Sequence record: SRR20825019_238
Reading direction: 5' to 3' (one strand)
DNA length: 46,528 nucleotides
Shown: positions 21,102 through 44,780 of the stretch, piece by piece
Layout: each line of letters starts with the position of its first letter
Numbering within the stretch: the stretch's first letter is position 1
Position numbers and translations under genes: made by a program
Notes under the pieces: generated by a model
The model's input: only the letters and a program-made list of their open reading frames with translations
Database searches by the model: none
What the model was told of the DNA's origin: nothing

Positions 21102-21140
21102 TGTAAAATATTTGGACATTTTTTGTACAAAATTTTTACA
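21102..21140. promoter_or_regulatory. Tandem TGT-N11-ACA palindromes (candidate activator sites)
   Basis: TGTAAAATATTTGGACA (21102-21118) and TGTACAAAATTTTTACA (21124-21140), 22 bp apart. Confidence 0.6.
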
Positions 21141-21203
21141 CCTGCTTTATCTTGAGCGCGCTTTATTGAGTGTAACTGTCTGATAATCAATTTTAAAATA
21201 TTT

Positions 21204-21218
21204 TGGCATAAGAATAGA
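21204..21218 (+). promoter_or_regulatory. Putative non-canonical sigma54 promoter of the transporter operon
   Basis: TGGCAT-AAGAA-TAGA: good -24 element, -12 reads GA rather than GC. Preceded by an IHF-like site (21173-21185, minus TATCAGACAGTTA) and the palindrome pair. Confidence 0.45.
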
Positions 21219-21243
21219 ATACAGTTTGGCACAGTAATACACT

Positions 21244-22578
21244 ATGAATCTAAAAATAAACATAACAACCTTTTTATTATTGGCTTCGTTCCTTGGGTTT
21301 TCCCAAGAAGTATGGACGTTGGAAGAATGTGTGGCTTATGCCATCGAACACAACCTTCAGGTAAAGAATACCTCATACAACAATGAATCCAGCAAGGAAT
21401 CTTATCGGCAGTCCATACGTGACCTGTTGCCATCGGTAAGCGGCTCTACCGACTATACTATACGATATGGTAGGTCTGCCGACCCCCAGACCAACGATTA
21501 CGTGAACACGGAATTCTTTAGTAACAACTATTCGCTTAATGCCAGTTTGGACCTGTTCCGCGGTTTTCAAAAAATGAATTCGATAAGAGCATCAAAATTT
21601 ATTTATAAGGCAACCCAAGAGGACATTCTACAGGAAAAGTTCTTGTTGGCCTTTAGGGTGATGAGTGCGTTTTACGATATCAAGTTCTTTCAAGGCCTAG
21701 TGAACAATACTTTGGAACAATTGGAAATTTCGCAGGCCAATTACGATTTGGTCGAAAAACAAGTAGAATTGGGATTGATGGCAGGGGCCGATCTTTACGA
21801 AGCTGAATCCAACCTTTTGGGGGATAAGTTTCTATTGACCCAGAACCGCAACCAATTGACAAATGCCAAACTGGTGCTTTTACAAGAAATGAACCTGATT
21901 GGCGCTACGGACATTGAAATCCAAGAAACCCTTGAAGAGACCTCACCTAACCGAGATGTGACCTTGGATTCGCTGTATCGGTCGGCCCGCGGATTTGTTC
22001 CCTTGGTAAAAGCACAGGAGTATCGTGTTTCCGCGGCCAAAAAGCAAATGCAGGCCACAAGGGGAGACCTATTCCCCTCTTTATCCCTTTTTGCAGGTTA
22101 CGGAACCAGTTATTTTGAGACCAATGTGGATGAGAATGGCAATGTAATTCCATTTAAGACCCAGTTCAACGACAACCAATCCAAGTTTGTCGGTGCCCAG
22201 TTGAACATTCCGATTACCAATGGTTGGGCCAATCACTCCAGGGTAAAACAGCAAAAGATAGCCTACATGCAGGCAAAGAACAACCTTGAGATACAAGAGC
22301 AGGAACTGTTCAAACTGTTGCAACAATTAGTTCAGGACAACCGTGCACTTATTGCGGAATATGAGCAGAGCTTACAAAAGGTCGATGCACAGGAATTGGC
22401 TTTCACCATTGCTCAAAAAAGATATGAAAAGGGATTGATCAATGCATTGGAACTGTTTCAGGCCAAGAACCTTTTCGGTGTGGCACAGAACGAGAACTTA
22501 CAGGTGGGATTAAGGTTAAAAGTCAATCAAAGTACCATTGATTTTTACAGCGGTCTGCCCATATTTAACATCAACTAA
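21244..22578 (+). CDS. TolC-family outer membrane channel
   Basis: Signal peptide, WTLEECVAYAIEHN, LLPSVS / LFPSLSL repeats and RYEKGLIN. Confidence 0.93.
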   Translation: MNLKINITTFLLLASFLGFSQEVWTLEECVAYAIEHNLQVKNTSYNNESSKESYRQSIRDLLPSVSGSTDYTIRYGRSADPQTNDYVNTEFFSNNYSLNASLDLFRGFQKMNSIRASKFIYKATQEDILQEKFLLAFRVMSAFYDIKFFQGLVNNTLEQLEISQANYDLVEKQVELGLMAGADLYEAESNLLGDKFLLTQNRNQLTNAKLVLLQEMNLIGATDIEIQETLEETSPNRDVTLDSLYRSARGFVPLVKAQEYRVSAAKKQMQATRGDLFPSLSLFAGYGTSYFETNVDENGNVIPFKTQFNDNQSKFVGAQLNIPITNGWANHSRVKQQKIAYMQAKNNLEIQEQELFKLLQQLVQDNRALIAEYEQSLQKVDAQELAFTIAQKRYEKGLINALELFQAKNLFGVAQNENLQVGLRLKVNQSTIDFYSGLPIFNIN

Positions 22579-22586
22579 AATAAACC

Positions 22587-23837
22587 ATGGATATACAATT
22601 AGAGAAAAAGAAAGGACTTAAACTCAAGCATTACGGCTACATCGCTTTGGGCATATTGCTCTTGTTCGTTGGCTATAAGTTGATTTTTGCCAGCTCCATG
22701 TCCACCTTTAGGACAGAGAAGGATCGCTTGTCCATCTCCTCGGTGACCGCCGGCAAATTTGACGACTACATAACCATAAATGGAAACGTGGCACCTATCG
22801 CCACCATTTATATGGATGCCTATGAAGGAGGCCGGGTATCCGAAAAATTGATCGAGGAAGGTTCCATGGTCAAGCAAGGGGACATTATTCTTAAATTGGA
22901 GAACATGGCCCTGTACGAGCAAATTTTGGCAAGCGAAAGCAACTTGGCCCTTAAACAGAACGATCTACGTTCCACCAAACTTACTTTTGATTCCAGACAA
23001 GTGGAGGGCAGAAAATCCTTGGCCACTGCACAATACGATGTGCAACGCTTAAAACGAGCTTACGAGCAGAACAAAGAGCTATATGAAGAGGAACTGGTTT
23101 CCAAAGAAACATATCTAAAATCCAAGGAAGATTACGAATTGGCACAAAAACAATACGAAATAGTAAAGTTACAGACCGAGCAGGATGATGAATTGAGAGA
23201 AACCTCATTAAAGGGACTGGATACGGACCTAGATCGTATGCAGAAAACATTGTCCATGGTCTACGAGCGGTTGGACCACTTGAACGTTCGAGCCCCGGCC
23301 GATGGCCAATTGGGCTTTTTGGATGCCGAGATAGGCCAGAACATTTCACAGGGACAGCGTATCGGCCAGATCAATGTACTGACCGATTTTAAAATCGAAG
23401 CGGATATCGATGAGCATTATATTGACCGTGTAAAGAGAGACCTTTCCGCTTCTTTGGAGCGAAATGGAAACGAGTACAAACTGCGCTTGCGCAAGGTTTA
23501 CCCCGAAGTACGGAACGGCAGGTTTAGGGTCGATTTGGTTTTTGTGGACGAAAAACCCGAAACCATAAGAGCAGGTCAGAGCTACAACATACGATTGCAA
23601 CTGGGCGAATCCAACGATGCCATGTTGCTTCCCAAAGGAGGTTTTTTCCAAAGCACGGGAGGACAATGGGTGTTCGTGGTAAGTCCCGATGGCAATGAAG
23701 CCATTAAGCGCAATGTGCGATTGGGCAAACAAAACTCAAGATATTATGAGGTCCTTGAGGGGCTTCAGCCTGGAGAACAGGTCATTACCAGTAACTACGA
23801 TAGTTTTGGCGATGCGGAACGGATTGTATTGAAATAA
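22587..23837 (+). CDS. Periplasmic adaptor (membrane fusion protein, MacA/HlyD family)
   Basis: N-terminal TM, GGRVSEKLIEEGSMVKQGD lipoyl half, long coiled coil, VRAPADG and EVLEGLQPGEQVI. Confidence 0.93.
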   Translation: MDIQLEKKKGLKLKHYGYIALGILLLFVGYKLIFASSMSTFRTEKDRLSISSVTAGKFDDYITINGNVAPIATIYMDAYEGGRVSEKLIEEGSMVKQGDIILKLENMALYEQILASESNLALKQNDLRSTKLTFDSRQVEGRKSLATAQYDVQRLKRAYEQNKELYEEELVSKETYLKSKEDYELAQKQYEIVKLQTEQDDELRETSLKGLDTDLDRMQKTLSMVYERLDHLNVRAPADGQLGFLDAEIGQNISQGQRIGQINVLTDFKIEADIDEHYIDRVKRDLSASLERNGNEYKLRLRKVYPEVRNGRFRVDLVFVDEKPETIRAGQSYNIRLQLGESNDAMLLPKGGFFQSTGGQWVFVVSPDGNEAIKRNVRLGKQNSRYYEVLEGLQPGEQVITSNYDSFGDAERIVLK

Positions 23838-23902
23838 TCCGCAGAAATGTAACAATGATCAAAAATGAACAGTCTTTAACAAGCAATCAAACAACCATTA
23901 CA

Positions 23903-24598
23903 ATGATAAAAATTACAGATCTTAAAAAAAGTTTCCGAACAGAAGAAGTGGAAACCTTGGCCCTAAATGGCGTAAACCTTAAGGTTGAAGAAGGGGAATT
24001 TGTGGCGATCATGGGCCCCTCCGGATGTGGAAAGTCAACCTTGTTGAACATTATAGGGATGTTGGACAACCCTACGCAGGGAAGCTACAACTTCGCAGGG
24101 CACGAAGTCGGCGGATTAAAGGAAAGTCAACGGACCCAATTGCGAAAGGGGAATCTGGGCTTTGTGTTCCAAAGCTTTAACCTGATCGATGAGCTCACCG
24201 TTTTTGAAAACGTGGAACTGCCATTGATCTACCTTAAGATGAACAAGGCCGAGCGCAAAGAAAAAGTGCAGAAGGTACTGGAACGCATGAAAATCGCACA
24301 CCGAGAAAAGCACTTTCCCCAACAACTTTCCGGGGGTCAACAGCAAAGGGTTGCCATCGCAAGAGCCGTGGTCACCAATCCAAAACTGATCTTGGCGGAT
24401 GAGCCGACCGGTAACTTGGATTCCAAAAACGGTATAGAGGTAATGAACCTGTTGACCGAGCTGAACCAAGAGGGGACCACCATTGTTATGGTAACACACT
24501 CCGATAGGGATTCGCATTATGCGCACAGGGTAATCAATTTATTCGACGGTCAAATCGTGACCGAAAGTCAGAACAAACCATTAAAGGCCATGATATAG
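23903..24598 (+). CDS. ABC transporter ATP-binding protein 1 (LolD/MacB-type)
   Basis: GPSGCGKS, LSGGQQQRVAIARA, LADEPTGNLD and VTH. Likely start 23903 (ORF track 23855). Confidence 0.95.
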   Translation: MIKITDLKKSFRTEEVETLALNGVNLKVEEGEFVAIMGPSGCGKSTLLNIIGMLDNPTQGSYNFAGHEVGGLKESQRTQLRKGNLGFVFQSFNLIDELTVFENVELPLIYLKMNKAERKEKVQKVLERMKIAHREKHFPQQLSGGQQQRVAIARAVVTNPKLILADEPTGNLDSKNGIEVMNLLTELNQEGTTIVMVTHSDRDSHYAHRVINLFDGQIVTESQNKPLKAMI

Positions 24599-24610
24599 GA
24601 GTTTATGTCA

Positions 24611-24634
24611 TCAATCAAAAAAACGATCAAATCA
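24611..24634 (+). repeat. Permease-junction motif, copy 1
   Basis: TCAATCAAAAAAACGATCAAATCA. Confidence 0.7.
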
Positions 24635-24639
24635 TTCAC

Positions 24640-27021: not shown

Positions 27022-27026
27022 AAAAA

Positions 27027-27049
27027 TCAATCAAAAAACGATCAAATCA
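27027..27049 (+). repeat. Permease-junction motif, copy 2
   Basis: TCAATCAAAAAACGATCAAATCA, one A shorter than copy 1. Confidence 0.7.
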
Positions 27050-27054
27050 ATAGT

Positions 27055-29472
27055 ATGTTCAAGAACCACTTAAATATCGCATGGAGAAGTATTAAAAAGG
27101 ACAAGCTCTTCACATTTATAAAAATAGGTGGGTTTGCCGTTGGTATCGCGGCCTGTCTTTTGATCACCCTTTTCATCGGCAATGAATCCAGTTATGATAC
27201 CCATTACCAAAACAAAGACCACATATACCGAGTGGTGTTCCAAGGTGAGATTCAAGGAGAGGTAATGAAGAGCACCCACTTTCAATTGCCTTTTTCCGAT
27301 GCACTCCAATCTGATTTTGCCGAAATAACCAAGGCGGGAAAAGTGAACACCATTGAAATCTTTGGTGCGGGCAAACGAGGTTTTAGGATAAACGGGGCAC
27401 AGGAGAACACTTTTGAAGAGAACTTTATCATTGCGGATCAGGAGGCTTTTGAGATTTTGGAAATCGAACTGGAACAGGGAGACCCGACAACTGCGTTGAC
27501 CAATCCAAAGAGCATCGTAATTTCTAGGTCTAAAGCGAACAAATACTTCCCGAACGGAAATGCCATAGACCAAGTAGTCTTTTTGGACAATGACACTTCC
27601 GAACCCTACACCGTAACAGGGATAATGGAGGATATTCCAAAAAATATGCACCTGAATTTTGATTTTATGCTTCCTGTGGAGGACACCAATGGAAGCTGGA
27701 CCAACCAGAACTATTTTACCTATGTGTTGGTCAATCCGAACACCGATATTCGGGAATTGGAACAAAAAATGTCTTCCATTGTTGAAAAATACATTATTCC
27801 GGCGCAAATGGAAAGGGGCCGCTCGGCCAGTTTTATAGATGTACTGCGGACCGCTGAGTACAAACTGCAACCGGTAACGGACATTTACCTGAAATCGGAC
27901 CTAAAAATGCAGGATGGATTGAAGCATGGCGATGTCAAGTTTGTATGGCTCTTTGCGGCCATAGCCATTTTTGTACTGCTCTTGGCCATTATCAACTTTA
28001 TCAATCTTTCCACGGCCAAATCAGCCAATAGGGCCAAAGAAGTGGGTTTAAGAAAGACCATAGGGGCATTTAGGAACAGTTTGGTCAACCAATTTTTGAC
28101 CGAATCGGTCATGTTCAGTGTTATTTCTTTTGTGCTAGGTGTGTTCTTGGCTTGGGGACTGCTACCGTTCTTTAATGAAATCGCTTCAAAAGACATTGAA
28201 CTCCCATGGAGCGATTGGTGGTTTGTGCCCGTATTGCTTGTTGCTGCATTGTTTGTAGGTGTTTTGGCAGGAATTTATCCGGCGTTTTACCTATCTGCCT
28301 TTAAACCGGCCAATGTTCTTAAAGGTTCCTTGAGCGTGGGCAGCAAAAGTGGCAGACTGCGCAGTGGATTGGTCATCTTTCAATTTACCACTTCGGTGAT
28401 CCTGATTATTGGCACATTGATCATCTACCGCCAGATGGACTATATCGTCAGCAAGGAATTGGGATATGATAAGGAACGTGTGGTAGTGCTGGAGGGAACC
28501 CATATTCTTGACAACAAAATAGAATCATTTAAACAACAATTATCATCATTATCTCAGGTGAAAAGTGTGACATCCACCAACTATTTGCCCATTGATGGAG
28601 GGAGCCGAAATGGAAACACCTTTATGGTCGATGGCCAGGATGATGGAGGAAGAGGTGTAGCTGCACAGATTTGGAAGGTTGACTATGGTTATACCGAAAC
28701 CTTGGGAATCCAATTGGATAAGGGTAGAACTTTTTCAAAGGACTTTGCCTACGATTCCATCAATTCGATAGTCATCAATAACAAAATGGCCGCAGAGCTT
28801 GGTCTAAAGGATCCAATCGGTAAAAAATTGGACAACAACAGCCAAGTTTTTGAGATTATAGGGGTGATAGAGGATTTTCATTTTAAATCCTTGAAAGAGG
28901 ATATCTCCGCATTGTCATTGGTCATAGGAAAGGACAATGGAGCTGTTTCGGTAAAACTTGAAAAAGGAAACCCGACCGATGCGCTCGCTGCCATTGAGCA
29001 AGTTTGGAACAGAAATGTTCCAAATCAAGCACTCAACTACTCTTTTTTGGAGCAGGAATTTGCCCAAATGCACGAAGATGTACAGCGAATGGGCAAAATA
29101 TTCAACAGTTTTGCCTTATTTGCCATTCTTGTGGCCTGTCTGGGCCTGTTTGCCCTATCAGCATTTATGGTAGAGCAGCGAAGAAAGGAGATAAGCATTC
29201 GTAGAGTGCTCGGCGCGCCCTTCCAAAATATTTATAAACTGCTCACTTTTGACTTTCTGAAACTTATCATCATTTCAATTGTGATTGCCACACCTATAGG
29301 CTGGTATTTGATGAACAGGTGGTTGGAAGGTTTCGCTTACAGAATCAGTATTGGATGGGAAGTTTTTTTAATGGCAGGGGTCATCGCCCTGTGCATTGCC
29401 GTACTGACCATCAGCTATCAATCCATAGGAGCGGCCTTTTTACAACCGACCAAAGGTCTGCGCAATGAATAA
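27055..29472 (+). CDS. Type VII ABC permease 2
   Basis: Same two-repeat MacB/FtsX architecture; INFINLSTAKS..RAKEVGLRK. Confidence 0.93.
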   Translation: MFKNHLNIAWRSIKKDKLFTFIKIGGFAVGIAACLLITLFIGNESSYDTHYQNKDHIYRVVFQGEIQGEVMKSTHFQLPFSDALQSDFAEITKAGKVNTIEIFGAGKRGFRINGAQENTFEENFIIADQEAFEILEIELEQGDPTTALTNPKSIVISRSKANKYFPNGNAIDQVVFLDNDTSEPYTVTGIMEDIPKNMHLNFDFMLPVEDTNGSWTNQNYFTYVLVNPNTDIRELEQKMSSIVEKYIIPAQMERGRSASFIDVLRTAEYKLQPVTDIYLKSDLKMQDGLKHGDVKFVWLFAAIAIFVLLLAIINFINLSTAKSANRAKEVGLRKTIGAFRNSLVNQFLTESVMFSVISFVLGVFLAWGLLPFFNEIASKDIELPWSDWWFVPVLLVAALFVGVLAGIYPAFYLSAFKPANVLKGSLSVGSKSGRLRSGLVIFQFTTSVILIIGTLIIYRQMDYIVSKELGYDKERVVVLEGTHILDNKIESFKQQLSSLSQVKSVTSTNYLPIDGGSRNGNTFMVDGQDDGGRGVAAQIWKVDYGYTETLGIQLDKGRTFSKDFAYDSINSIVINNKMAAELGLKDPIGKKLDNNSQVFEIIGVIEDFHFKSLKEDISALSLVIGKDNGAVSVKLEKGNPTDALAAIEQVWNRNVPNQALNYSFLEQEFAQMHEDVQRMGKIFNSFALFAILVACLGLFALSAFMVEQRRKEISIRRVLGAPFQNIYKLLTFDFLKLIIISIVIATPIGWYLMNRWLEGFAYRISIGWEVFLMAGVIALCIAVLTISYQSIGAAFLQPTKGLRNE

Positions 29473-29486
29473 ATCAATCAAAAAAC
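29466..29486 (+). repeat. Permease-junction motif, copy 3
   Basis: TGAATAAATCAATCAAAAAAC, identical to 34267-34287. Confidence 0.7.
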
Positions 29487-29496
29487 ACCATCGATC

Positions 29497-31896
29497 ATGC
29501 TAAAGAACTATATTAAAATCGCCTGGAGAAACCTTGCAAAAAACAAGGGTTATACCATAATCAACGTAGGAGGTCTTGCGTTGGGCATGGCGGTAACGCT
29601 CATTATCGGCCTTTGGGTGCAAGATGAGCTGAGCTATAACGATTACAACACCAATAAGGACAAAATCGCCCAAATATTCCAATCCCAAACGTTCAATGGG
29701 GAAACCGGAACCGGGCCCGCTATCCCGAGACCATTGGAGAAAGCTTTTAGGGATGGTTATATGGATAATTTTGAGTATTTGGTGATGTCTTCTTGGACCA
29801 CCTCCCAATATTTAAAATATAAGGAAACAAGCATTTCTCGCGAAGGCAATTTTATGCAGCGGGAAGCTCCCGAAATCCTTGATATAAAAATTTTGAAGGG
29901 AGAAAGGGACGGTGTTCGGGAAATCAACTCCATAATGTTGAACGAGTCCACCGCCAAAGCACTTTTTGGGGAGGAAGACCCGATTGGAAAGGTAATCGAG
30001 GTAAATAGCCAATACGATATGATGGTCACGGCAGTTTACGAGGACCTCCCTTTCAATGCCTCTTTTAATGACACAGAATTCATAATGCCATGGGATAAAT
30101 ATGTCTCAGTGAACGAATGGATCAAAAATGCCGAAGATCAATGGGGGAACAATTCGTTTCAAATGTTTGTCCAGATTGCGGACAATACGACCATGGAATC
30201 CGTTACCTCAAAAATTCTGGAGGTAAAACAGAAGCTGAACGAAAACTCCAGGGAATTCAACGCCCAATTGTTTCTATTTCCAATGGAGGATTGGCACCTG
30301 CGCAGCAGTTTCGAAAACGGGAAGCAAGCAGGGGGCCGAATCAAATATGTTTGGCTGTTCGGAATTATCGGAGGGTTTGTATTGCTTTTGGCCTGTATCA
30401 ATTTTATGAATCTCAGTACCGCCCGTTCGGAGAAAAGGGCAAAGGAGGTGGGGATCAGAAAATCCATTGGGTCTCAGCGCTCCCAATTGATCAACCAGTT
30501 TTTGGGCGAGTCCTTTTTGGTGGTATCATTTGCCTTTGCAATTGCTGTATTGATCGTTGTGGCGTCCTTGAACGGGTTCAATAATTTGGCAAGAAAAGAA
30601 ATATCCTTCCCTTGGGGCTCCCTTGCATTTTGGGGTGTTTCTTTGGTCTTTATAACGGTCACAGCTCTTTTGGCGGGCAGCTATCCTGCTCTTTATTTAT
30701 CCTCGTTCAGACCAGTGGATGTCTTAAAGGGAACTTTCAAGGCAGGCAAGCATTCCGGTTTACCAAGAAAGATTTTGGTGGTGGTCCAGTTTACCGTTTC
30801 CGTAGCGTTCATCATCGGAACCGTGATCGTAATGCAACAGATCAATTATGCTAAAAACAGACCCATTGGGTACGATAAGGAGGGTCTGGTCCAGATTCCG
30901 ACGATGAGCCAGGATTTTACGGGCAAGTTTGAATTGATGCGGGATGAATTCATCAATTCAGGAGCGGTTGTGGAAATGTCCACATCCAGCGCCCCGACCA
31001 CTAACATTTGGTCCAACCGGAGCGGATTTGTTTGGGAGGGCAAACCAGAAGGTTTCCAAGAAGATCTGGCATGGACCGAAGTGTCCCCTGAATATGCCAA
31101 AAGTCTCAACTTAAAGATTGTGGAGGGAAGGGATTTTTCACGGGAGTTCCCCTCGGACTCCAATGCCGTGCTGATCAATGAAACGGCCGTGAAATATATG
31201 GGGCTCAAGAATCCAATAGGAAAGTTTATTAAGGACGATGATGAGGAAGACCCATCGCCACCTTTAAAGATAATAGGCGTGGTTCAGGACATGATCGCAC
31301 AGTCGCCGTACGAACCAGTGAAACAAGGCATGTACGTTTTTGATAAATACGGCAATGCTTCCTATTACAATATGAGATTGAACCCATCCCAGAGTGCAAG
31401 CCAGAACATTGCAGTAATCGAGAGGGTATTCAAAGAGCATTTCCCGAACATTCCCTTTCAATACGATTTTGTGGACGAGGAATATGCTGAAAAATTTGCA
31501 TCTGAAGAACGGATTGGCACCCTATCCGGTATTTTCACCGCACTTGCCATTTTAATAAGCTGTTTGGGACTATTTGGTCTCACCTCTTTTGTTGCGGAAC
31601 AGCGCACCAAGGAGATAGGGGTGCGAAAAGTGCTGGGCGCATCGGTATTTAATGTTTGGAACATGTTGTCCAAGGACTTTTTAAAACTTGTGATTATCTC
31701 CTGTTTTATCGCGGTGCCCATTGCCTATTATGTAATGAACGGATGGTTGCAAGAATATCCGTACAGGGTGATTTTGAAATGGTGGATTTTTGGCTTGGCC
31801 ATGCTCGGAGCCCTCGCGGTAACGGTGCTCACGGTAAGTTTTCAGGCCATACGGGCGGCAAAATCCAACCCGGTCAAAAGTTTGAGAACGGAATAA
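29497..31896 (+). CDS. Type VII ABC permease 3
   Basis: INFMNLSTARSEKRAKEVGIRK, EQRTKEIGVRKVLGA and NPVKSLRTE. Confidence 0.93.
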   Translation: MLKNYIKIAWRNLAKNKGYTIINVGGLALGMAVTLIIGLWVQDELSYNDYNTNKDKIAQIFQSQTFNGETGTGPAIPRPLEKAFRDGYMDNFEYLVMSSWTTSQYLKYKETSISREGNFMQREAPEILDIKILKGERDGVREINSIMLNESTAKALFGEEDPIGKVIEVNSQYDMMVTAVYEDLPFNASFNDTEFIMPWDKYVSVNEWIKNAEDQWGNNSFQMFVQIADNTTMESVTSKILEVKQKLNENSREFNAQLFLFPMEDWHLRSSFENGKQAGGRIKYVWLFGIIGGFVLLLACINFMNLSTARSEKRAKEVGIRKSIGSQRSQLINQFLGESFLVVSFAFAIAVLIVVASLNGFNNLARKEISFPWGSLAFWGVSLVFITVTALLAGSYPALYLSSFRPVDVLKGTFKAGKHSGLPRKILVVVQFTVSVAFIIGTVIVMQQINYAKNRPIGYDKEGLVQIPTMSQDFTGKFELMRDEFINSGAVVEMSTSSAPTTNIWSNRSGFVWEGKPEGFQEDLAWTEVSPEYAKSLNLKIVEGRDFSREFPSDSNAVLINETAVKYMGLKNPIGKFIKDDDEEDPSPPLKIIGVVQDMIAQSPYEPVKQGMYVFDKYGNASYYNMRLNPSQSASQNIAVIERVFKEHFPNIPFQYDFVDEEYAEKFASEERIGTLSGIFTALAILISCLGLFGLTSFVAEQRTKEIGVRKVLGASVFNVWNMLSKDFLKLVIISCFIAVPIAYYVMNGWLQEYPYRVILKWWIFGLAMLGALAVTVLTVSFQAIRAAKSNPVKSLRTE

Positions 31897-31906
31897 GAAC
31901 AGGATC

Positions 31907-34273: not shown

Positions 34274-34289
34274 ATCAATCAAAAAACGA
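34267..34289 (+). repeat. Permease-junction motif, copy 4
   Basis: TGAATAAATCAATCAAAAAACGA. Confidence 0.7.
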
Positions 34290-34294
34290 GAATC

Positions 34295-36727
34295 ATGTTC
34301 AAAAACAACATCAAAATAGCATGGAGAAGCCTAAAAAAGCAGCCATTCTTCACCTTCCTTAACATATTTGGATTAGCAATAGGAATGGCTGGTGGGCTTT
34401 TACTCGGCCTTTACATTTGGGACGATCTTAACCACGATAACATGTTCACGGATGCGGAACGCATTTATCGTATTAATGCCGACACGAAATTTGGGGGCGC
34501 CGAAGAAAATGTTTCGGAGATATCCGCACCCATGGCCCGGGCAATGGTAAACGACATCCCACAAGTTGAAATGGCCACAAGGTTCAGAAATATTGGGAGC
34601 GTATTTATTCGACCACAAGATGAAATGGATAACGTTAGGGAGTCCCATGTTTCGTATGCCGACTCCACGTTTTTTGATATGTTCGGAATCGATCTTTTGT
34701 ACGGGGATAGACATACGGCATTAGTGGAGCCCAATACATTGGTTATGACACGTACTGCTGCAGAAAAACATTTTCCTATTGATCAAGCAGTCGGAAAAAC
34801 ACTGATAATCAATGATGAGGATGTTTATACGGTCTCAGGGGTATTGGAAGACCTACCAAAGAACTCGATATTTAAGGACAAACCCATTTTTTTGGCCATG
34901 TCCGGTTATGAAGATGCTCTACAGGCAGAATGGGGCAGTCACAACTACTATACGTTCGTAAAGTTAACCCCAGGTGTTTCTGGCGAAGACATTCAGGACC
35001 AAATGCAGGCCATGGTCGGGAGGTATGTTATTCCTTATGCACAAAAATTCTTTCCCGGTATCACCGAACAACAATTTTTGGAGTCGGGGAATTACATTAA
35101 CTATTCCACCATTCCCTTAAAGGATATTCATTTATACTCCAAAAGAAGCCCGGAGTTCAGCACTGTCAGCGATATCAAGAATGTGTACATCCTTGGGGCA
35201 ATCGCTTTGATACTTTTGGTGTTGGCTAGCGTGAATTTCATGAACCTGTCCACGGCCCATTCCCTTAAACGGTCAAAAGAAGTGGGTATCCGAAAAACAT
35301 TGGGATCCCAGCGTAGTGGATTAATCGGCCAGTTTTTGACCGAATCCGGACTGATCGCCGTGGGCTCATTGATTTTTGCCTTGTTGATCGCGGCCCTTGT
35401 CATGCCACTGTACAATGACCTTGCCGGGAAAGAATTGTCCATACCCTATGCCAATCCTGTTTTTTGGTTGATTTTGATCGTAGCAGCATTGGTCCTTGGT
35501 CTGTTCTCTGGAAGTTACCCCGCATTCTTCATGTCGCGTTTTGTTGCCGCAAAAGTACTGAAAGGTCAAGGGGACAACTCCATTGGAGGCGGTAGGGTAA
35601 GAAATGCATTGGTCATACTTCAATTTAGTATATCCGTATTTCTGATTATGGGGACCCTAACGGTATTTCAGCAACTGCGTTTTATACAGGGGAAAGACCT
35701 CGGTTATGGAAAAAACCAAGTATTGATCATAGGTGGTGTTAATGGCCTTGAAGGAAAAAGACAGGCGTTCAAAGATGCAGTACTTCGGTTAAGTCAGGTG
35801 AACACGGCAACGTTGAGCAGTTACCTGCCCACGCCATCCTCGCGCAGCAGCGGAACCTATATGCTGGCAGAGGATAGGAGCCAAGAAAGATCCATCAATA
35901 TGCAGCAATGGAATGTTGACGATGATTATATCTCCACAATCAACCTTTCCCTTGTTTATGGAAGGGACTTTGATGTGACAAAATTCCCGACCGATTCATC
36001 TGCGGTCATATTAAATGAAAAAGCTGTGGCCGTTTTGGGAAAAACTCCTGAAAGTGTTATTGGAACCCAATTTGTCAATGACTTTGAGAACGGGTCTTTG
36101 TCGACCGTAGTCGGAGTGGTCAAGAATTTTCATTTTGAGACACTTAAGGAAGAGGTAGGGGCCCTGGCTCTTTTCAATGGCGGCGGAAATCCGGATAATT
36201 TGGCCATCAAGCTCGAAGGAGGAGATGTGACAAGAACCGTGGCAGCAGTGGAGAATATATGGAGGGAGATGGCACCTACACAGCCCTTTGAACATTATTT
36301 TATGGACGATTCCTTCAACAATAGTTATGAAGCGGAGCAGCGATTGGGGCAGATCTTCATGGTTTTCACCTTGCTGTCCATCGTAATAGCCTGCTTGGGC
36401 CTGCTTGGGCTTGCTGCTTTCAATGCCCAAAAACGGGTGAAGGAAATCGGAGTGAGAAAGGTTTTGGGCGCGGGTGTCGGACAGATTGTCTACCGGTTGT
36501 CCGCGGACTTTTTAAAATTGGTCGGACTAGCCATAGTTATTGCATTGCCCTTGGGGTGGTATGCCATGGACCGATGGCTTCAGGACTTCTCGTACCGAAT
36601 AGAGATACCATGGTGGATATTTGCCCTGTCCGCATTATTGGCCATTGGAGTTGCCATAGTAACCGTTAGTTACCAAAGTATTAAGGCGGCCGTAGTGAAT
36701 CCCGTCAAAAGCTTACGAACAGAATAA
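34295..36727 (+). CDS. Type VII ABC permease 5
   Basis: VNFMNLSTAHS.KRSKEVGIRK, KRVKEIGVRKVLGA and NPVKSLRTE. Confidence 0.93.
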   Translation: MFKNNIKIAWRSLKKQPFFTFLNIFGLAIGMAGGLLLGLYIWDDLNHDNMFTDAERIYRINADTKFGGAEENVSEISAPMARAMVNDIPQVEMATRFRNIGSVFIRPQDEMDNVRESHVSYADSTFFDMFGIDLLYGDRHTALVEPNTLVMTRTAAEKHFPIDQAVGKTLIINDEDVYTVSGVLEDLPKNSIFKDKPIFLAMSGYEDALQAEWGSHNYYTFVKLTPGVSGEDIQDQMQAMVGRYVIPYAQKFFPGITEQQFLESGNYINYSTIPLKDIHLYSKRSPEFSTVSDIKNVYILGAIALILLVLASVNFMNLSTAHSLKRSKEVGIRKTLGSQRSGLIGQFLTESGLIAVGSLIFALLIAALVMPLYNDLAGKELSIPYANPVFWLILIVAALVLGLFSGSYPAFFMSRFVAAKVLKGQGDNSIGGGRVRNALVILQFSISVFLIMGTLTVFQQLRFIQGKDLGYGKNQVLIIGGVNGLEGKRQAFKDAVLRLSQVNTATLSSYLPTPSSRSSGTYMLAEDRSQERSINMQQWNVDDDYISTINLSLVYGRDFDVTKFPTDSSAVILNEKAVAVLGKTPESVIGTQFVNDFENGSLSTVVGVVKNFHFETLKEEVGALALFNGGGNPDNLAIKLEGGDVTRTVAAVENIWREMAPTQPFEHYFMDDSFNNSYEAEQRLGQIFMVFTLLSIVIACLGLLGLAAFNAQKRVKEIGVRKVLGAGVGQIVYRLSADFLKLVGLAIVIALPLGWYAMDRWLQDFSYRIEIPWWIFALSALLAIGVAIVTVSYQSIKAAVVNPVKSLRTE

Positions 36728-36749
36728 CCAACCACAAAAAGCAAAGCAC

Positions 36750-39200
36750 ATGTTGATCAATCATCTTAAAATAGCCTGGCGAAGTATCTTAAAGAACAAA
36801 TTGTTTTCCTTCATCAATGTGGTTGGTCTTTCCATTGGCCTCTGCTCCGCATTGGTCATCGGGGCCATTATTTATTTCGATTTTTCGTTCGACACCTTCC
36901 ATAAGGACAAGGATAGGATATATCGGGTCACATCGCTTTTCAAGTCCGGAAACGATGAGTTTACCAATAGAGGTGTCCCTGTTCCCTTGATGCAGACCTT
37001 CAAGGACGGGGTTTCGGGAGTTGAGGAGGTGGCACCTTTTATGAGCGCGAATTTTTCAAAAGTTGAAAACAAAAGTCAGGAGGTGATTCTCAAAAATGTG
37101 AACGATGGTATTTTTGCCGACGAGGGCTATTTTCAATTATTTGATTACCAATGGCTGGCGGGCAATTCACAAACTGCACTATCAGAACCCGCACAAGTTG
37201 TGCTGACCAAGAATACCGCAGCAAAATATTTCCCCAAAAAAAGTCCTACAGATGTGATTGGAAGCACCTTGGTCTACAACGACTCCATCAATGTGAAGGT
37301 TTCGGGAGTTGTTGCTGATTTTGAAAAAAACACCGATTTCAAGTTTACGGATTTCATGTCCATGAGCTCCGCAAAAATGTTCGGCGAAAAAGAAATTGCG
37401 ACCAGTGATCAGTGGAACAACACAAGCTCTGGAGATCAATTGTTCTTCAAGGTCAGAGAAGGGGTCGATATGGCCGCCATACGGTCCCGATTGGATGCTT
37501 TGGCCAAAGAACACAAAAACACTGCAGCCTGGGCTGCGGATGATGAAAGGTTGTTCGTGCTGCAAAGCTTGCCTGAAATTCATTTTGGGGGCAAAAGCGG
37601 CGATTACCCATTCAACAACTCCGACCATGTGGCCAGCAAGACCGTTTTGACAAGCCTATCCTTTGTAGCATTGTTTTTATTGTTGTTGGGCTGCGCCAAC
37701 TTCATCAACCTAAATTCGGCCCAAGCACTCACGCGCGCAAAGGAAATCGGTATTCGAAAAACCTTGGGGAGCTCCAAAAAGCAAGTGGTGCGCCAATTTT
37801 TGGGAGAGACCTTCATATTGACCGTTCTGGCGACGCTCCTATCTCTTTTGATGGCTCCTTTCCTGTTGCAACAGTTTTCCGAGTTTTTACCAAGTGGGAT
37901 CGACCTTTCCGTTTTATATAGTATGCAAGGGATACTTGGAATTATTTTGTTGGTGACCATTGTAAGTATATTATCGGGCTTCTATCCCGCATTTGTGCTT
38001 TCGAAGTTTAGACCGGTTGCCGTGCTAAAGGGACAGTTTACAAAAGGAGACAAAGGCACGCGTTTGCGCAAGACCCTTACGGTTTTTCAATTTGTGGTCG
38101 CCCAAGTATTTGTAATAGCAACGATGTTGGTCACCAAACAACTGCATTTTGTCATGAACAAGGACATGGGCATCAAGACCGAGGCGGTGGCCTATGTGCG
38201 CCTTCCATGGAACGATAAGTCCGAAGTAAAAAAAGAAAGGTTGTTTTCCCAAATGGAGAAGATAAAGGGACTTTCCAAAGTAAGCTGGGGCGGAAACCCA
38301 CCCACTTCCAACAATATATCCTCCACAATTTTGACCTATTTCAAGGAAGAAAACGAGATGCACCAAGAAACCGAAATGCTCTGGGGGGACATAACCTATC
38401 TTAAAACCTACGGAATACCCCTATTGGCGGGCAGGGAAAGATTGAACGACAGTGTAAAGGAGTACATTGTAAACGAAAGGTTTGCCAAGGCTTTGGGCTT
38501 TCAAGATCCCGCTGAGGTCGTGGGCACTTTTCTAAAGATGGACAGCACACAAATTCCGGTAGTGGGACTAATGCGAGATTTTAACCAAAGGTCGTTAAGG
38601 TCGGACATTAAACCATTGGCCCTGACCGGGGATTGGGGCAACAGCAATTATTCCAGTTTTAATGCCATTCATTTTGACCTTGGCAATAATACCGATAATT
38701 GGAACGAAACCATTGAAGGCGTAGAACAGGCATGGGCTTCGGTTTATCCCGATCAAGAGATACAGGTAGAGTTCATGGACGAATTGGTGGAAGGCTTTTA
38801 CCGAAGGGAAAGAAGTACCGTACAGCTTTTAAAATGGGCCACAGGCCTGGCCATATTGATCAGTTGTTTGGGACTTATGGGCCTAGTCGTTTATACCACT
38901 GAAAGAAGGGTCAAAGAAATAGGGGTGCGAAAAGTATTGGGTGCCAATCTGGCCCAATTGAATATTTTATTGTGCAAGGAATTTTTGATTCTTGTAGCGG
39001 TTGCCTTTGCTGTTGCAGTGCCCATATCGTGGTATTTGGTGCAGGAATGGATAGAAAGCTTCGCGTATAAGACCGAACTAAGTTGGTGGGTATTCTTGGC
39101 AAGTGGAATCGGGATGGCCGTTATTGCCATGGCCGTAACCGGGGCAAGAACATACAAAACGGCCAACATCAACCCGATAGAAAGCTTAAGGAACGAATAG
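36750..39200 (+). CDS. Type VII ABC permease 6
   Basis: ANFINLNSAQALTRAKEIGIRK, ERRVKEIGVRKVLGA and NPIESLRNE. Confidence 0.93.
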   Translation: MLINHLKIAWRSILKNKLFSFINVVGLSIGLCSALVIGAIIYFDFSFDTFHKDKDRIYRVTSLFKSGNDEFTNRGVPVPLMQTFKDGVSGVEEVAPFMSANFSKVENKSQEVILKNVNDGIFADEGYFQLFDYQWLAGNSQTALSEPAQVVLTKNTAAKYFPKKSPTDVIGSTLVYNDSINVKVSGVVADFEKNTDFKFTDFMSMSSAKMFGEKEIATSDQWNNTSSGDQLFFKVREGVDMAAIRSRLDALAKEHKNTAAWAADDERLFVLQSLPEIHFGGKSGDYPFNNSDHVASKTVLTSLSFVALFLLLLGCANFINLNSAQALTRAKEIGIRKTLGSSKKQVVRQFLGETFILTVLATLLSLLMAPFLLQQFSEFLPSGIDLSVLYSMQGILGIILLVTIVSILSGFYPAFVLSKFRPVAVLKGQFTKGDKGTRLRKTLTVFQFVVAQVFVIATMLVTKQLHFVMNKDMGIKTEAVAYVRLPWNDKSEVKKERLFSQMEKIKGLSKVSWGGNPPTSNNISSTILTYFKEENEMHQETEMLWGDITYLKTYGIPLLAGRERLNDSVKEYIVNERFAKALGFQDPAEVVGTFLKMDSTQIPVVGLMRDFNQRSLRSDIKPLALTGDWGNSNYSSFNAIHFDLGNNTDNWNETIEGVEQAWASVYPDQEIQVEFMDELVEGFYRRERSTVQLLKWATGLAILISCLGLMGLVVYTTERRVKEIGVRKVLGANLAQLNILLCKEFLILVAVAFAVAVPISWYLVQEWIESFAYKTELSWWVFLASGIGMAVIAMAVTGARTYKTANINPIESLRNE

Positions 39201-39223
39201 ACTAACCAATCAAAACGAAAACC

Positions 39224-41635: not shown

Positions 41636-41679
41636 GTCAAACAAAATGATGGGTGAGAGCCTAACCAAAAAAGGAAACC

Positions 41680-44106
41680 ATGCTTAAGAACTATCTAAAA
41701 ATCGCTCTAAGGTACTTGCTGAAGAACAAGTTGTATTCTATCATCAACATTTTTGGCCTTGCCGTGGGGATAGCCTCATTTGTTCTTATAATGCTCTATG
41801 TAAATTATGAAAAGAGCTATGACACATTTGAAGGTTCCGAAAATGTATATAGGATCTACATGGATTATCTTGAAGGGGACACTTATGTGCCGGGCGATGC
41901 CATGACGTATAATTCGTCAGGCCCAGCCTTAAAGGAAATGTTTCCTGAAGTACTGGATTATGTAAGGTTTTACTATTTTGAAAAATTAGCTTTTAAAGTT
42001 GGTGAAAAGATCTTGGAGCAGCCATTGGGGTCTTTGGCCGACCCTTCTTACTTTAATATATTCAACTACCCTTTGTCAAAAGGAGATTCCGAAACCGTTC
42101 TAACAGAACCTAATTCCATTGTTCTTTCAAAATCTTTTGCCGAAAAACTTTTTGGGAACGAAAACCCTTTAAGAAGAACAATTTCTGTATTTGAAGACGG
42201 CAAAGAGACCCAACTTACGGTTACAGGTATTATGGAAGATGTTCCTGAAACAGCTCATTACAGAAATTCGTTTCTAATTTCCTACGAGACCGAAAAAACA
42301 CTGACCGATTTTGGACCCACAGCCCATGAGCTAAACTGGAACATGAACAATTATTACACCTATTTGAAGTTGGCTCCAAACACCAATATTGATGTCTTGC
42401 GTCAAAAAATAATAGACAGCGATATTGAAAAAAGTGAAACCGAAAGACATAACATAGAACCTATTGAGGATATTCATTTGTATTCCGATAAACCTTATGA
42501 AGTCACGGCTAACGGTAGTGTTCTGAGAATAAAGTTCTTAACAGCTATAGCTTTTATCATCCTTGTTCTTTCTTGGTTGAACTATGTTAATCTTTCGACG
42601 ACCAAATCGATGGAAAGGGCAAAGGAAGCAGGCATAAGAAAAGTTGCCGGGGCAAAAAAATCGCAGCTCATAGTCCAATCTTTAATGGAATCCTTACTGC
42701 TTAACTTTATCGCCATTGCCATTGCCCTCTCGATAGTTTTTGGAGTACTCCCCTTCTATACCAACATCATAGGAAATGAGCTCAATCTTGATTGGGGGTT
42801 TATAGTAAGCTTTATCCCTTATTTTATTTTCATAATAGGAGGCGTGATTTTGGCTGGGCTTTATCCCGCGTTATTGCTCAGCAGGTATTCGCCGGCAAAA
42901 GCACTCAAAGGAAAGGTGAGGGCCTCTACCGAAGGCATTGGACTTCGAAAAGGACTTATTGTCACACAGTTTTTTGCTACGATCGTATTGTTAACAGGAA
43001 CATTCATTATCTCTAAGCAAATCAATTTTTTGGATAATCAACCTATCGGTGCCGATGTTGGTCAAATTATAGCCCTGCATGGAACGGTGGTCTCGACCCA
43101 ATCGGATTCTTTGGTAAATAATGATTTTAGGGTATTAAAAGAGCAATTAGAGGACTTCCCTTTTATTGAGAAGACCGCCATCGCCCAAACCTATCCAGGT
43201 GATAGTTTTGACAATCTGTCCTCAAGTCGTGGAATTTGGTTGCCCGACGGGAGAAGTGACAAAGCCAATATTTTCTATACCTATCATGCCCAACCGGATT
43301 ACTTTGATTTAATGGACATTGAATTTTTGGCCGGGGGGACCTTTGTTCTGAATTCCAAGTTTGAAGGGAATCAAATTGTGGTGAACGAGACATTTTTAAA
43401 AACAGTGGGAATCTCCTCACCTGAAGACCTGCTGAATAAAACTGTAAGTTTCTGGGGAAACAATGAATGGAAAGTTGTAGGTATTATCAAAGATTACTAT
43501 CACTTTGGATTAAAAACACCCGTTTTACCAACGATTGTCAGATATCAGGATGACATAAGCAATCTGTTGGTTAAAATTGACAAATCTTCTATATCAATTG
43601 CAGGATTGGAAACAGCATTGAGTCAAATTGAAAACAAATGGCATGAAATTTTCCCTCAAAGTACATTCAATTATACCTTTTTAGATGAAAAATTTGAAGC
43701 CCAATATGAACAGGACAAAGCTTTTGGAAAGGCCTTTCAGATTTTTACGGTTCTTTCTATTCTTATTGCATCATTGGGACTTTTTGGCCTTACGGCATAT
43801 ACCGTTGTGCTGCGGAAAAAGGAAATAGGCATAAGAAAGGTAAACGGCGCCACTATAACACAAGTACTAACCTTATTGAACAAGGACTTTGTAAAATTGT
43901 TAGGATTGGCCTTCATTATTGCGATACCAAGCTCTTGGTACGTAATGAACCAATGGTTGGAAGGATTTACGTATAGAACAAATTTCAGTTGGTGGATATT
44001 CGCTTTGGCGGGAACAACAGCACTTCTGATTACTTTTTTAACGGTAAGCTGGCAGAGTTTTAAAGCTGCTATCGCCAATCCAGTGGAATCATTAAAAGAC
44101 GAATAA
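41680..44106 (+). CDS. Type VII ABC permease 8
   Basis: LNYVNLSTTKSMERAKEAGIRK, RKKEIGIRKVNGA and NPVESLKDE. Confidence 0.93.
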   Translation: MLKNYLKIALRYLLKNKLYSIINIFGLAVGIASFVLIMLYVNYEKSYDTFEGSENVYRIYMDYLEGDTYVPGDAMTYNSSGPALKEMFPEVLDYVRFYYFEKLAFKVGEKILEQPLGSLADPSYFNIFNYPLSKGDSETVLTEPNSIVLSKSFAEKLFGNENPLRRTISVFEDGKETQLTVTGIMEDVPETAHYRNSFLISYETEKTLTDFGPTAHELNWNMNNYYTYLKLAPNTNIDVLRQKIIDSDIEKSETERHNIEPIEDIHLYSDKPYEVTANGSVLRIKFLTAIAFIILVLSWLNYVNLSTTKSMERAKEAGIRKVAGAKKSQLIVQSLMESLLLNFIAIAIALSIVFGVLPFYTNIIGNELNLDWGFIVSFIPYFIFIIGGVILAGLYPALLLSRYSPAKALKGKVRASTEGIGLRKGLIVTQFFATIVLLTGTFIISKQINFLDNQPIGADVGQIIALHGTVVSTQSDSLVNNDFRVLKEQLEDFPFIEKTAIAQTYPGDSFDNLSSSRGIWLPDGRSDKANIFYTYHAQPDYFDLMDIEFLAGGTFVLNSKFEGNQIVVNETFLKTVGISSPEDLLNKTVSFWGNNEWKVVGIIKDYYHFGLKTPVLPTIVRYQDDISNLLVKIDKSSISIAGLETALSQIENKWHEIFPQSTFNYTFLDEKFEAQYEQDKAFGKAFQIFTVLSILIASLGLFGLTAYTVVLRKKEIGIRKVNGATITQVLTLLNKDFVKLLGLAFIIAIPSSWYVMNQWLEGFTYRTNFSWWIFALAGTTALLITFLTVSWQSFKAAIANPVESLKDE

Positions 44107-44117
44107 ATAAACATACT

Positions 44118-44780
44118 ATGCTATTACAACTCAACAACATATTCAAATGGGTCACTACGGGAGGCCAACGTATTTTTTTGCTGAAAGATATCAATCTGGA
44201 AGTGGAAGAAGGAGAGTTTATTTCAATAATGGGACCTTCGGGATCGGGAAAATCCACTTTGCTCAACGTGATCGGGATGTTGGATACTTTTGATGAGGGA
44301 GAATACAACTTCATGGATGAATCAGTCCATTCCCTTAAAGAAAAACACCGTTCCAACCTGTACAAACAATACATCGGCTTTGTGTTCCAATCCTACCACT
44401 TATTGGATGAACTTACGGTTAAGGAAAATTTGGAAATGCCCTTGATTTATAAAAAAATCAAAGGCTCCGAACGCAAGGCCATGGTGGCCGATATGCTGGA
44501 CCGTTTCAATATTGTGGGCAAAAAGGACCTTTTCCCAGCTCAGTTGAGTGGTGGACAGCAACAGCTGGTCGGGGTGGCGAGGGCTTTGATTGCCAGCCCA
44601 AAATTGATTTTGGCGGATGAGCCCACAGGTAACCTCAATTCCAAACAGGGCGAGGAAATCATGGAGCTATTCAAGCAATTAAATGAAGAAGGGGTGACCA
44701 TTATCCAGGTGACACATTCGGAGAAAAATGCCGAATATGGATCCAGAATCATCAATTTGTTGGACGGGAGAATGGTTTGA
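44118..44780 (+). CDS. ABC transporter ATP-binding protein 2 (LolD/MacB-type)
   Basis: GPSGSGKS, LSGGQQQLVGVARAL, LADEPTGNLN and VTH. Confidence 0.95.
   Translation: MLLQLNNIFKWVTTGGQRIFLLKDINLEVEEGEFISIMGPSGSGKSTLLNVIGMLDTFDEGEYNFMDESVHSLKEKHRSNLYKQYIGFVFQSYHLLDELTVKENLEMPLIYKKIKGSERKAMVADMLDRFNIVGKKDLFPAQLSGGQQQLVGVARALIASPKLILADEPTGNLNSKQGEEIMELFKQLNEEGVTIIQVTHSEKNAEYGSRIINLLDGRMV

Follow-up and report, generated by a model that had tools for sequence, protein, structure and literature searches.

The DNA analyzed here, a stretch of 46,528 nucleotides (nt) from sequence record SRR20825019_238 that we call the window, is 100% identical to contig 3 of Flagellimonas abyssi W52 (Flavobacteriaceae; locus L001). 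Between positions 21244 and 44780, twelve open reading frames (ORFs) on the plus strand encode, in this order, a TolC-like duct, a periplasmic adaptor, a first ATPase (ATPase 1), eight tandem permeases of 788-816 amino acids (aa; P1 to P8), and a second ATPase (ATPase 2). We favor, with moderate confidence, the view that these genes form a regulated tripartite efflux operon, in which the permease is present in eight alternative, specialized versions that all work with one ATPase pair, one adaptor, and one duct. The gene content suggests this common use of adaptor, duct, and ATPases, and we infer the direction and kind of transport, the differences in substrate, and control by sigma-54 (σ54).

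According to the mechanism proposed here, the locus would encode a MacAB-TolC-like tripartite efflux machine belonging to type VII among the ATP-binding cassette (ABC) systems. A divergently transcribed σ54 two-component pair probably switches the operon on, and the inner-membrane part of the machine would be available as eight alternative permeases. A single permease chain with 8 helices and two periplasmic domains would replace the dimer formed by MacB or by LolC/E. By analogy with YbbAP, each of the two cytoplasmic coupling helices of this chain is predicted to dock one ATPase subunit, so that any single permease would form a complete pump with the adaptor, the TolC-like duct, and two ATPase subunits. 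The pump would capture substrates in the periplasm or in the outer leaflet of the inner membrane and expel them by mechanotransmission. Because the permeases differ mainly in their periplasmic domains, each of them most likely handles a different substrate class, for example antimicrobial peptides, toxins, or amphiphiles of the marine habitat. Species would alter their set of permeases by gain, loss, and recombination of whole genes.

The ORF list and the Pfam assignments agree with the layout described in an earlier note on this DNA, namely one duct, one adaptor, two ATPases, and eight tandem permeases, all of whose reading frames are intact. The spacers between the twelve genes measure, in order, 8, 17, 41, 33, 24, 10, 21, 22, 23, 44, and 11 nt; the range of 10-44 nt given previously holds for the nine gaps flanking the permeases. 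Two crude scans found no terminator-like site in any spacer of the twelve-gene run, in line with the earlier remark that obvious internal terminators are lacking. In the same kind of scan, neither the total of terminator-like sites (15 vs 12.9 ± 3.6 and 18 vs 14.9 ± 4.2) nor that of σ70-like matches (22 vs 23.1 ± 5.4 and 24 vs 27.6 ± 4.3) was above shuffled sequence, and the Rfam and tRNA scans gave no matches. We take the twelve-gene run for one operon whose genes are presumably co-transcribed.

All eight permeases contain MacB_PCD and FtsX domains (Pfam). Two FtsX stretches were found in each of them, and two passing MacB_PCD stretches in five. Eight hydrophobic segments are conserved in the permease alignment, arranged as 1+3 and 1+3, together with two long hydrophilic domains; the Lys/Arg-rich N-terminus and the loops following helix 2 fit a topology with the N-terminus inside and both large domains outside. 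Three sequence motifs had been reported for these proteins. The N-terminal motif and the C-terminal P-x-x-x-L-R/K-x-E indeed occur in all eight permeases, and the paired coupling motifs KE-x-G-x-R/S-K/R in seven; the exception is P2, whose second copy reads KEISIRR.

We modeled P5 with AlphaFold on the basis of 52 sequences. The model (mean predicted local distance difference test [pLDDT] 82.9, predicted template-modeling score [pTM] 0.75) comprises two alpha/beta domains and eight long helices; the KE-x-G-x-RK motifs lie on short helices at residues 327-336 and 715-723. At the position of the coupling helix, that is, after helix 2, both halves of the chain thus carry the motif and a short helix, and the operon encodes LolD/MacB/DarD-like ATPases. 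A Foldseek comparison with the PDB returned YbbP of Escherichia coli first over the whole chain (E 4e-20), next the periplasmic domain of a Porphyromonas gingivalis permease (3is6; template-modeling score 0.79, target-normalized), and further MacB, LolE/LolC, BceB, and HrtB. In the MacAB-TolC structure 5nik, the membrane and periplasmic part of E. coli MacB is covered completely by positions 3-424 of the permease-family profile. Comparisons of sequence and profile with the PDB yielded no solved structure for the 8-helix fused form.

That each chain consists of two MacB-like halves, as proposed earlier, is consistent with Pfam, hydropathy, and the model, and also with the comparison of the halves among each other: mean bit scores are 171 between N-terminal halves, 208 between C-terminal halves, and 36.5 between N- and C-terminal halves. 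Since the first two values lie far above the third, the fusion long predates the multiplication of the genes, and the halves are non-equivalent, as in LolC/LolE. With a four-helix FtsX unit and an extracytoplasmic domain between helices 1 and 2, the permeases have the layout of type VII ABC proteins (the MacB/FtsX/LolCE superfamily).

Among the NCBIfam models, ADOP (TIGR03434) is the top match for all eight permeases, end to end, with 223-309 bits at a cut-off of 622.3. DarB (NF038008) follows with 79-173 bits at a cut-off of 700. MacB proper (NF007826) scored 30-67 bits at a cut-off of 966 and the ATPases lie in separate genes, so that the permeases do not qualify as MacB; YbbP (NF041854) matched only P1, P2, and P6 (18-23 bits at a cut-off of 999) and none of the other five. 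As these scores remain under the curated cut-offs, the permeases are relatives of ADOP and DarB and members of neither family. With ADOP they have the internal duplication and the large paralogous sets in common, but neither its score nor its "orphan" character, which in the TIGRFAM description denotes permeases without a neighboring ATPase. Searching with one permease as query showed how large the wider family is: 98,770 clusters (50% identity) at E ≤0.001 and 19,928 at E ≤1e-30. Double-length MacB-type permeases represent one of the large uncharacterized expansions of membrane proteins in Bacteroidota and Acidobacteria.

P2-P8 share 29-34% identity with P1. Averaged over the 28 paralogue pairs, identity is lowest in the two periplasmic domains PCD1 (22.4%) and PCD2 (23.5%), followed by transmembrane segments (TM) 2-4 (34.4%), the linker with TM5 (36.2%), the N-terminus with TM1 (46.4%), and TM6-8 (46.7%). 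The periplasmic regions therefore differ as strongly as had been noted from the sequence. Faster evolution of the periplasmic domain is usual in this superfamily, and a review (Greene 2018; PMC5985334) describes the identity of these domains as low. Full-length relatives of P5 at ~60% identity occur in Maribacter, Aquimarina, Arenibacter, Costertonia, and other genera and, where named, are called only "ABC transporter permease," "FtsX-like permease," or similar. The two periplasmic domains of P5 share 57% and 49% identity with 22 distant orthologues, compared with 23% and 25% with the seven neighbors. The external domains are lineage-specific rather than hypervariable.

Selection was assessed by the ratio of nonsynonymous to synonymous substitutions (dN/dS) according to the pairwise Nei-Gojobori method. 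Of 45 orthologue comparisons of permeases, 23 had a finite dS and gave whole-gene values from 0.022 to 0.130; in the remaining 22, dS was saturated. Values of 0.02-0.13 for all eight permeases indicate that none is a decaying copy. In comparison with the orthologues of F. aequoris, amino-acid change is 1.6-2.3 times faster in the periplasmic than in the membrane domains in five of seven lineages. The comparison of identity and dN/dS per domain, suggested in the earlier note, thus identified the periplasmic domains as the most divergent and, in these five lineages, the faster ones; it did not do so in the two others, and no permease domain reached a dN/dS of 1. The paralogues are ancient, individually constrained lineages and not a recently diversified repertoire. 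This corrects the picture of a repertoire given in the earlier note.

The products of the other four genes were assigned as follows. The duct reaches 117 bits with TIGR01844, under the cut-off of 225. The adaptor exceeds the cut-off of TIGR01730 RND_mfp (152 bits at 94.9) but stays under that of DarC (203 bits at 450), and its MacA-like match is likewise under the respective cut-off. For both ATPases, DarD is the top NCBIfam model (303 bits for ATPase 1 and 254 bits for ATPase 2 at a cut-off of 375); ATPase 1 is also matched by the N-terminal part of MacB and by LolD. The two ATPases share 54% identity, and four motifs (Walker A, LSGGQ signature, Walker B, H-loop) are retained in both. Small differences adjoin the signature (LSGGQQQR in ATPase 1, LSGGQQQL in ATPase 2) and affect the D-loop (TGNLD and TGNLN, respectively); given these deviations, the two proteins could be non-interchangeable. 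The ORF of the ATPase 1 orthologue in F. crocea is 231 aa long and starts at the equivalent of residue 17, the point from which ATPase 1 can be aligned with ATPase 2. Residue 17 may be the true start of ATPase 1, and codons 1-16 (23855-23902) may be untranslated. ATPase 2 closes the array also in F. chongwuensis (98.6% identity) and in the metagenome-assembled genome (MAG) Co_bin.134 (91.4%). In the latter, ATPase 2 is 91% identical, compared with 55-65% for the full-length permeases: the core parts are much more conserved than the permeases.

Table 1. Position, strand, and basis of assignment of the regulators, the promoter region, and the twelve genes of the run in the window.
Feature	Position	Strand	Basis
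Sensor histidine kinase, 450 aa	18325..19677	-	Pfam PAS, HATPase_c
NtrC-type σ54-dependent response regulator, 452 aa	19681..21039	-	Response_reg + Sigma54_activat + HTH_8
Promoter region, block conserved with F. crocea (L003 1590-1745)	21100..21231	+	Sequence reading
TolC-family outer-membrane factor (duct), 444 aa, signal-peptide-like N-terminus	21244..22578	+	Pfam OEP 153 bits
Periplasmic adaptor (membrane fusion protein), 416 aa, one N-terminal membrane helix	22587..23837	+	HlyD_3, HlyD_D23
ATPase 1, 247 aa as the ORF reads	23855..24598	+	ABC_tran
Permease P1, 793 aa	24640..27021	+	MacB_PCD + FtsX
Permease P2, 805 aa	27055..29472	+	MacB_PCD + FtsX
Permease P3, 799 aa	29497..31896	+	MacB_PCD + FtsX
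Permease P4, 788 aa	31907..34273	+	MacB_PCD + FtsX
Permease P5, 810 aa, the one modeled	34295..36727	+	MacB_PCD + FtsX
Permease P6, 816 aa	36750..39200	+	MacB_PCD + FtsX
Permease P7, 803 aa	39224..41635	+	MacB_PCD + FtsX
Permease P8, 808 aa, compositional outlier	41680..44106	+	MacB_PCD + FtsX
ATPase 2, 220 aa	44118..44780	+	ABC_tran

A scan of genomes returned 13 loci, whose genes were typed by BLASTP against the proteins of the window. Array content, whose comparison among strains the earlier note had suggested, differs between related species. F. aurea carries the same eight permeases. F. crocea (L003) lacks P1; between P6 and P7, it carries one additional permease that is strongly diverged. 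In F. chongwuensis, P7 is directly followed by ATPase 2 and P8 is absent. F. aequoris, F. sediminis, and Allomuricauda sp. M10 have two additional lineages, located after P1 and after P4, respectively, as well as a gene only 52% identical to P8, and no P7 in the visible stretch. MAG Co_bin.134 shows the order P2-P4-P6-P7-ATPase 2. The number of permeases in related species is thus seven, or at least nine, or another subset. Conservation also varies with the lineage: P1 orthologues are 83-86% identical in four species, conservation is highest for P3, with 89-91% identity in F. aequoris, F. sediminis, and Allomuricauda sp. M10, and within one species pair the identity of orthologues spans 91% (P3) to 52% (P8).

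A FastTree phylogeny of 54 permeases resolved eleven lineages in the arrays, each with full local support, which answers the proposal to place the paralogues in a tree; the deep branching came with long-branch warnings, and its order is unreliable. Left out were the rows of L001 and L002 (near-identical to the window) and of L007 (near-identical to L006), as well as the truncated ORFs L008 1-1686 and L012 13431-14552. When the gene order of L006 and L009 is read against this tree, the extra lineage after P1 pairs with P3, the one after P4 with P6, and P2 with P5. Such pairs hint that a block of three genes in the array was duplicated long ago; the deep branches involved carry the long-branch warnings.

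At the nucleotide level, identity along the locus is mosaic. Compared with F. crocea, the regulator, duct, adaptor, and ATPase 1 genes are 74-89% identical, P2-P6 89-99%, and P7 71-75%. An 11.7-kb block (window 27047-38800, L003 5140-16900) is 98-99% identical in most tiles between flanks of 71-89%. Its edges between F. abyssi and F. crocea were mapped to the spacer that directly precedes the P2 start codon and to ~38785-38875, a recombination breakpoint where the TM6-8 module of P6 begins. Compared with F. chongwuensis, duct and adaptor are 98-99% identical, P1 73-78%, and the downstream oxidoreductase 80-81%; which segments are the transferred ones is read from the flanks only. P8 deviates in its content of guanine plus cytosine, both overall (38.5%) and at third codon positions (39.3%), from P1-P7 (41.7-45.3% and 43.7-53.6%), and it is 72-76% identical to proteins of Maribacter and unnamed Flavobacteriaceae compared with 52% to the nearest F. 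aequoris gene. P8 looks like a recent acquisition. The mosaic identity and the composition of P8 point to an exchange of whole permease genes or blocks between species. A possible, more tentative extension of these observations is that the array supplies one shared efflux engine with a repertoire of specificity cassettes that can be exchanged horizontally, whole permease genes being swapped by recombination between species. Recombination would then take place at conserved gene boundaries and membrane modules, as at the edges of the 11.7-kb block, and the set of expelled compounds could be retuned without touching ATPases, adaptor, or duct.

The histidine kinase and the σ54-dependent response regulator are encoded divergently upstream of the operon in all three loci whose upstream side is visible (the window, L003, and L010). 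L010 is a Cyclobacteriaceae MAG and belongs to another order. The response regulator is 94.5% identical to its orthologue in F. crocea and 52.4% to that of L010, compared with 37.9% to the other σ54 regulator of the window; the kinase of L010 is 34% identical and has the same N-terminal layout. A hydropathy scan detected overlapping hydrophobic segments within residues 6-57 of the kinase, a pattern that we read as two putative membrane helices with a very short loop and no external domain. A computational survey of 2025 reports that σ54 promoters are enriched before COG0577 permeases in Bacteroidia (PMC12316311). We consider it likely, from this gene arrangement, that the divergent σ54 two-component pair controls the operon, with the kinase as its putative sensor. 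By analogy with Bce modules, a kinase without an external loop might read pump activity rather than an external ligand.

Within the conserved block of the promoter region, we found a near-palindrome, TGTACAAAATTTTTACA, at 21124-21140 and two TTTGGCA boxes at 21202-21208 and 21225-21231. The distance between the boxes is exactly 23 nt in F. abyssi as well as in F. crocea, and the second box ends 12 nt before the start codon of the duct gene. In L010, a –24/–12 box with one mismatch and a palindrome are located upstream of the adaptor gene. Scanning the window for TGGCAC-N5-TTGC with ≤2 mismatches gave 40 matches vs 40.8 expected. Its only exact match, at 16226-16240 (+), lies just downstream of a kinase/σ54 regulator pair (13673-16095) and precedes the ORFs 16297-16719 (140 aa) and 16754-17113 (119 aa, with a signal-peptide-like start), with which it probably forms a separate σ54 unit. 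A 152-aa ORF (17874-18332, minus strand) with a weak match to the C-terminal part of GreA/GreB shares 8 nt with the end of the gene for the divergent histidine kinase and is therefore likely part of the regulator operon. Facing it is a 205-aa protein (17260-17877, plus strand) with one membrane helix at its C-terminus and no assigned family.

The spacers before P1, P2, P3, and P5 (24599-24639, 27022-27054, 29473-29496, and 34274-34294) have a ATCAATCAAAAAAC-like motif in common, which is weaker in the spacers 36728-36749 and 39201-39223. The motif recurs although the adjoining genes share only ~30% identity. It is possibly a signal for translation initiation or coupling; the host phylum is mostly without Shine-Dalgarno sites.

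Several observations weigh against a common pump with eight specialized permeases. No signal of diversifying selection was obtained by the pairwise Nei-Gojobori method, the highest per-domain dN/dS values (0.51-0.60) come from segments with ≤0.03 substitutions per site, and P1 and P3, two of the seven orthologue pairs with F. aequoris, do not show faster periplasmic evolution. No σ54 –24/–12 box (TGGCAC-N5-TTGC, ≤2 mismatches) is present in 21040-21243; since the operon has no canonical box nearby, the regulatory link rests on synteny. Eight permeases that would each need two ATPase and about six adaptor subunits pose a problem of stoichiometry for one transcript. Finally, plasmid NZ_CP111048.1 of Chondrinema litorale (L014), whose whole record has 16 matching places, carries at 11528-38684 two runs of five tandem permeases (~865-885 aa), each behind a PadR-like regulator of 113-115 aa; a "permease prefix domain 2" was found in both of the two proteins tested out of the ten. 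These arrays are without ATPase, adaptor, and duct in the 42 kb shown, and the permease family can therefore work, or at least be encoded, in a different setting. This leads to the alternative that some or all of the permeases are duct-independent, as in YbbAP-TesA, LolCDE, or FtsEX, and serve as stand-alone type VII systems for the extraction of lipids, lipoproteins, or hydrophobic compounds out of the inner membrane or for the activation of periplasmic enzymes, with only one or a few pairing with the adaptor. YbbP, the top whole-chain structural match of the P5 model, is described as working with a periplasmic hydrolase and not with a duct (PMC12646458), and a thioesterase gene is reported within the related permease cluster of Psychroflexus torquis (PMC3914696). 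However, the operon contains no gene for a hydrolase or chaperone partner, the two linker helices of YbbP are absent from the permeases, and in all Flagellimonas-type loci with visible ends the array is flanked by the adaptor and ATPase 1 at its start and by ATPase 2 at its end. We regard duct independence, one of the two main rivals of the favored view, as rather unlikely.

The permeases could also be dedicated exporters of self-made products such as peptides, siderophores, or glycolipids, with a different cargo for each, comparable to DarBCD, PvdRT-OpmQ, or DevBCA-HgdD. After ADOP, DarB, DarC, and DarD are the top named NCBIfam models for permeases, adaptor, and ATPases; DarBCD is reported to raise the darobactin titer 2-4 fold (PMC8442675), and paralogues of DevBCA in Anabaena to export glycolipids via one common duct (PMC8277102). 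Yet all scores stay far under the DarB, DarC, and DarD cut-offs, none of the 16 other ORFs scanned in the 46.5 kb of the window shows a radical S-adenosylmethionine (SAM), non-ribosomal peptide synthetase/polyketide synthase, or precursor-like family, and the same array lineages recur in many genera. Moreover, array content varies between near-identical genomes, which fits roles in defense or niche adaptation better than a fixed pathway, and we judge export of self-made products, the other main rival, to be unlikely. That all eight permeases assemble into one obligate hetero-oligomeric complex would agree with their common operon and the conserved order of the lineages. This idea, already raised in the earlier note, is contradicted by the varying permease sets of relatives, which do well with seven, at least nine, or a different subset, and each chain already holds both halves of a type VII dimer; we consider it very improbable. 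The scenario of a single expressed permease is made less likely by the comparable P. torquis cluster, many of whose paralogues are reported to be highly abundant in the proteome (PMC3914696). Least credible of all are redundant duplicates with one working copy and the rest drifting, an explanation that has the repetition itself in its favor and is opposed by eight intact frames, dN/dS values of 0.02-0.13, ~30% identity between paralogues, and lineages kept across genera. The analysis supports the modular pump proposed at the outset in part, namely by its architecture, the periplasmic divergence, the variation of the array, and purifying selection; diversifying selection was not seen. As all presumed partners are encoded together, the locus offers a clean case for studying the cargo of the permeases, the sharing of an engine, and the coding of specificity in periplasmic domains. 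If the permeases do share one engine, this would be a new organizational principle for tripartite pumps and would bear on the intrinsic resistance of Bacteroidota in marine and gut habitats and on their chemical warfare.

The remainder of the window contains further recognizable genes. Positions 2-6558 encode a SusC-like TonB-dependent receptor, a SusD-like lipoprotein, and a DUF5117/DUF4953 Met-zincin in a row, which from these family assignments is predicted to be a utilization locus with a peptidase, and not a glycosidase, at its center. Next to a PAS/AraC regulator, the minus strand (6943-9531) encodes a MauE-family membrane protein and a protein of 366 aa without a family; a large thioredoxin-like protein is encoded nearby, at 12273-13505.

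Tandem arrays of this kind are neither new nor rare. The guess that they may already sit in annotations of Bacteroidota was correct, and one is in print: for P. torquis, another member of the Flavobacteriaceae, a 42-kb genomic-island cluster with eight to ten ADOP paralogues beside genes for ATP-binding and other transporter proteins was described in 2014 as highly abundant in the proteome (PMC3914696). Genomes of Dyadobacter hold 28 and 33 ADOP copies (PMC11573002). A full-text search of one literature library found no functional study of these arrays. Like ADOP, the permeases of the window have two MacB_PCD and FtsX halves in a chain of ~800 aa and occur in large tandem paralogous sets, but their operon includes two ATPases, an adaptor, and a duct. 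In contrast to those of C. litorale, they lack the "permease prefix" domain and the PadR-like regulator. A paper on the coevolution of Flavobacterium johnsoniae with Burkholderia was also considered and rejected as irrelevant; the type of its pump is unconfirmed, and the authors discuss it as a resistance-nodulation-division pump. Papers on fitness in plant-associated Bacteroidota and on protein variability likewise had no bearing on the arrays.

The nearest characterized relative is the darobactin exporter DarBCD of Photorhabdus, which has a double-length permease, a separate ATPase, and an adaptor, and not MacB itself or MacAB-TolC, with which the locus had been compared. Loss of DarBCD is reported to lower the darobactin titer 2-4 fold (PMC8442675). 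DarBCD differs from the array in having one permease and in being part of a gene cluster for a ribosomally synthesized and post-translationally modified peptide; the proteins of the window score under the equivalog cut-offs, and no radical-SAM or precursor gene is found among the 16 other ORFs scanned. With MacAB-TolC, the locus shares the superfamily, the fold of the membrane and periplasmic part, the adaptor, and a TolC-like duct. The mechanotransmission described for MacAB-TolC on periplasmic substrates (PMC5985334) is the likely mechanism here too. MacB, however, is a homodimer of 4-helix chains with an N-terminally fused ATPase, whereas the window encodes 8-helix fusions, separate ATPases, and eight permeases. 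In E. coli YbbAP, one fused permease is reported to bind two ATPase copies via two coupling helices (PMC12646458). YbbAP-TesA resembles the predicted pump in its fused pseudosymmetric permease with two periplasmic domains and in the separate ATPase that serves it in two copies, but YbbP has 10 helices, two of them linkers, and its partner is a periplasmic lipid hydrolase instead of an adaptor and duct. In Anabaena, at least seven MacB-type pumps, paralogues of DevBCA with differing roles, are described to use one HgdD duct (PMC8277102). Each of these pumps has its own operon with its own adaptor and ATPase, whereas in the window only the permease is multiplied. BceAB-BceRS of Firmicutes likewise combines a type VII permease with a neighboring histidine kinase of two membrane helices that lacks an external sensor domain, and BceS senses through the transporter. 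It differs in that BceB has 10 helices and one external domain and that the regulator is of the OmpR type. What the present analysis adds is evidence for old, individually constrained permease lineages in the F. abyssi array, for their cassette-like turnover and mosaic exchange between species, and for a conserved σ54 two-component partner.

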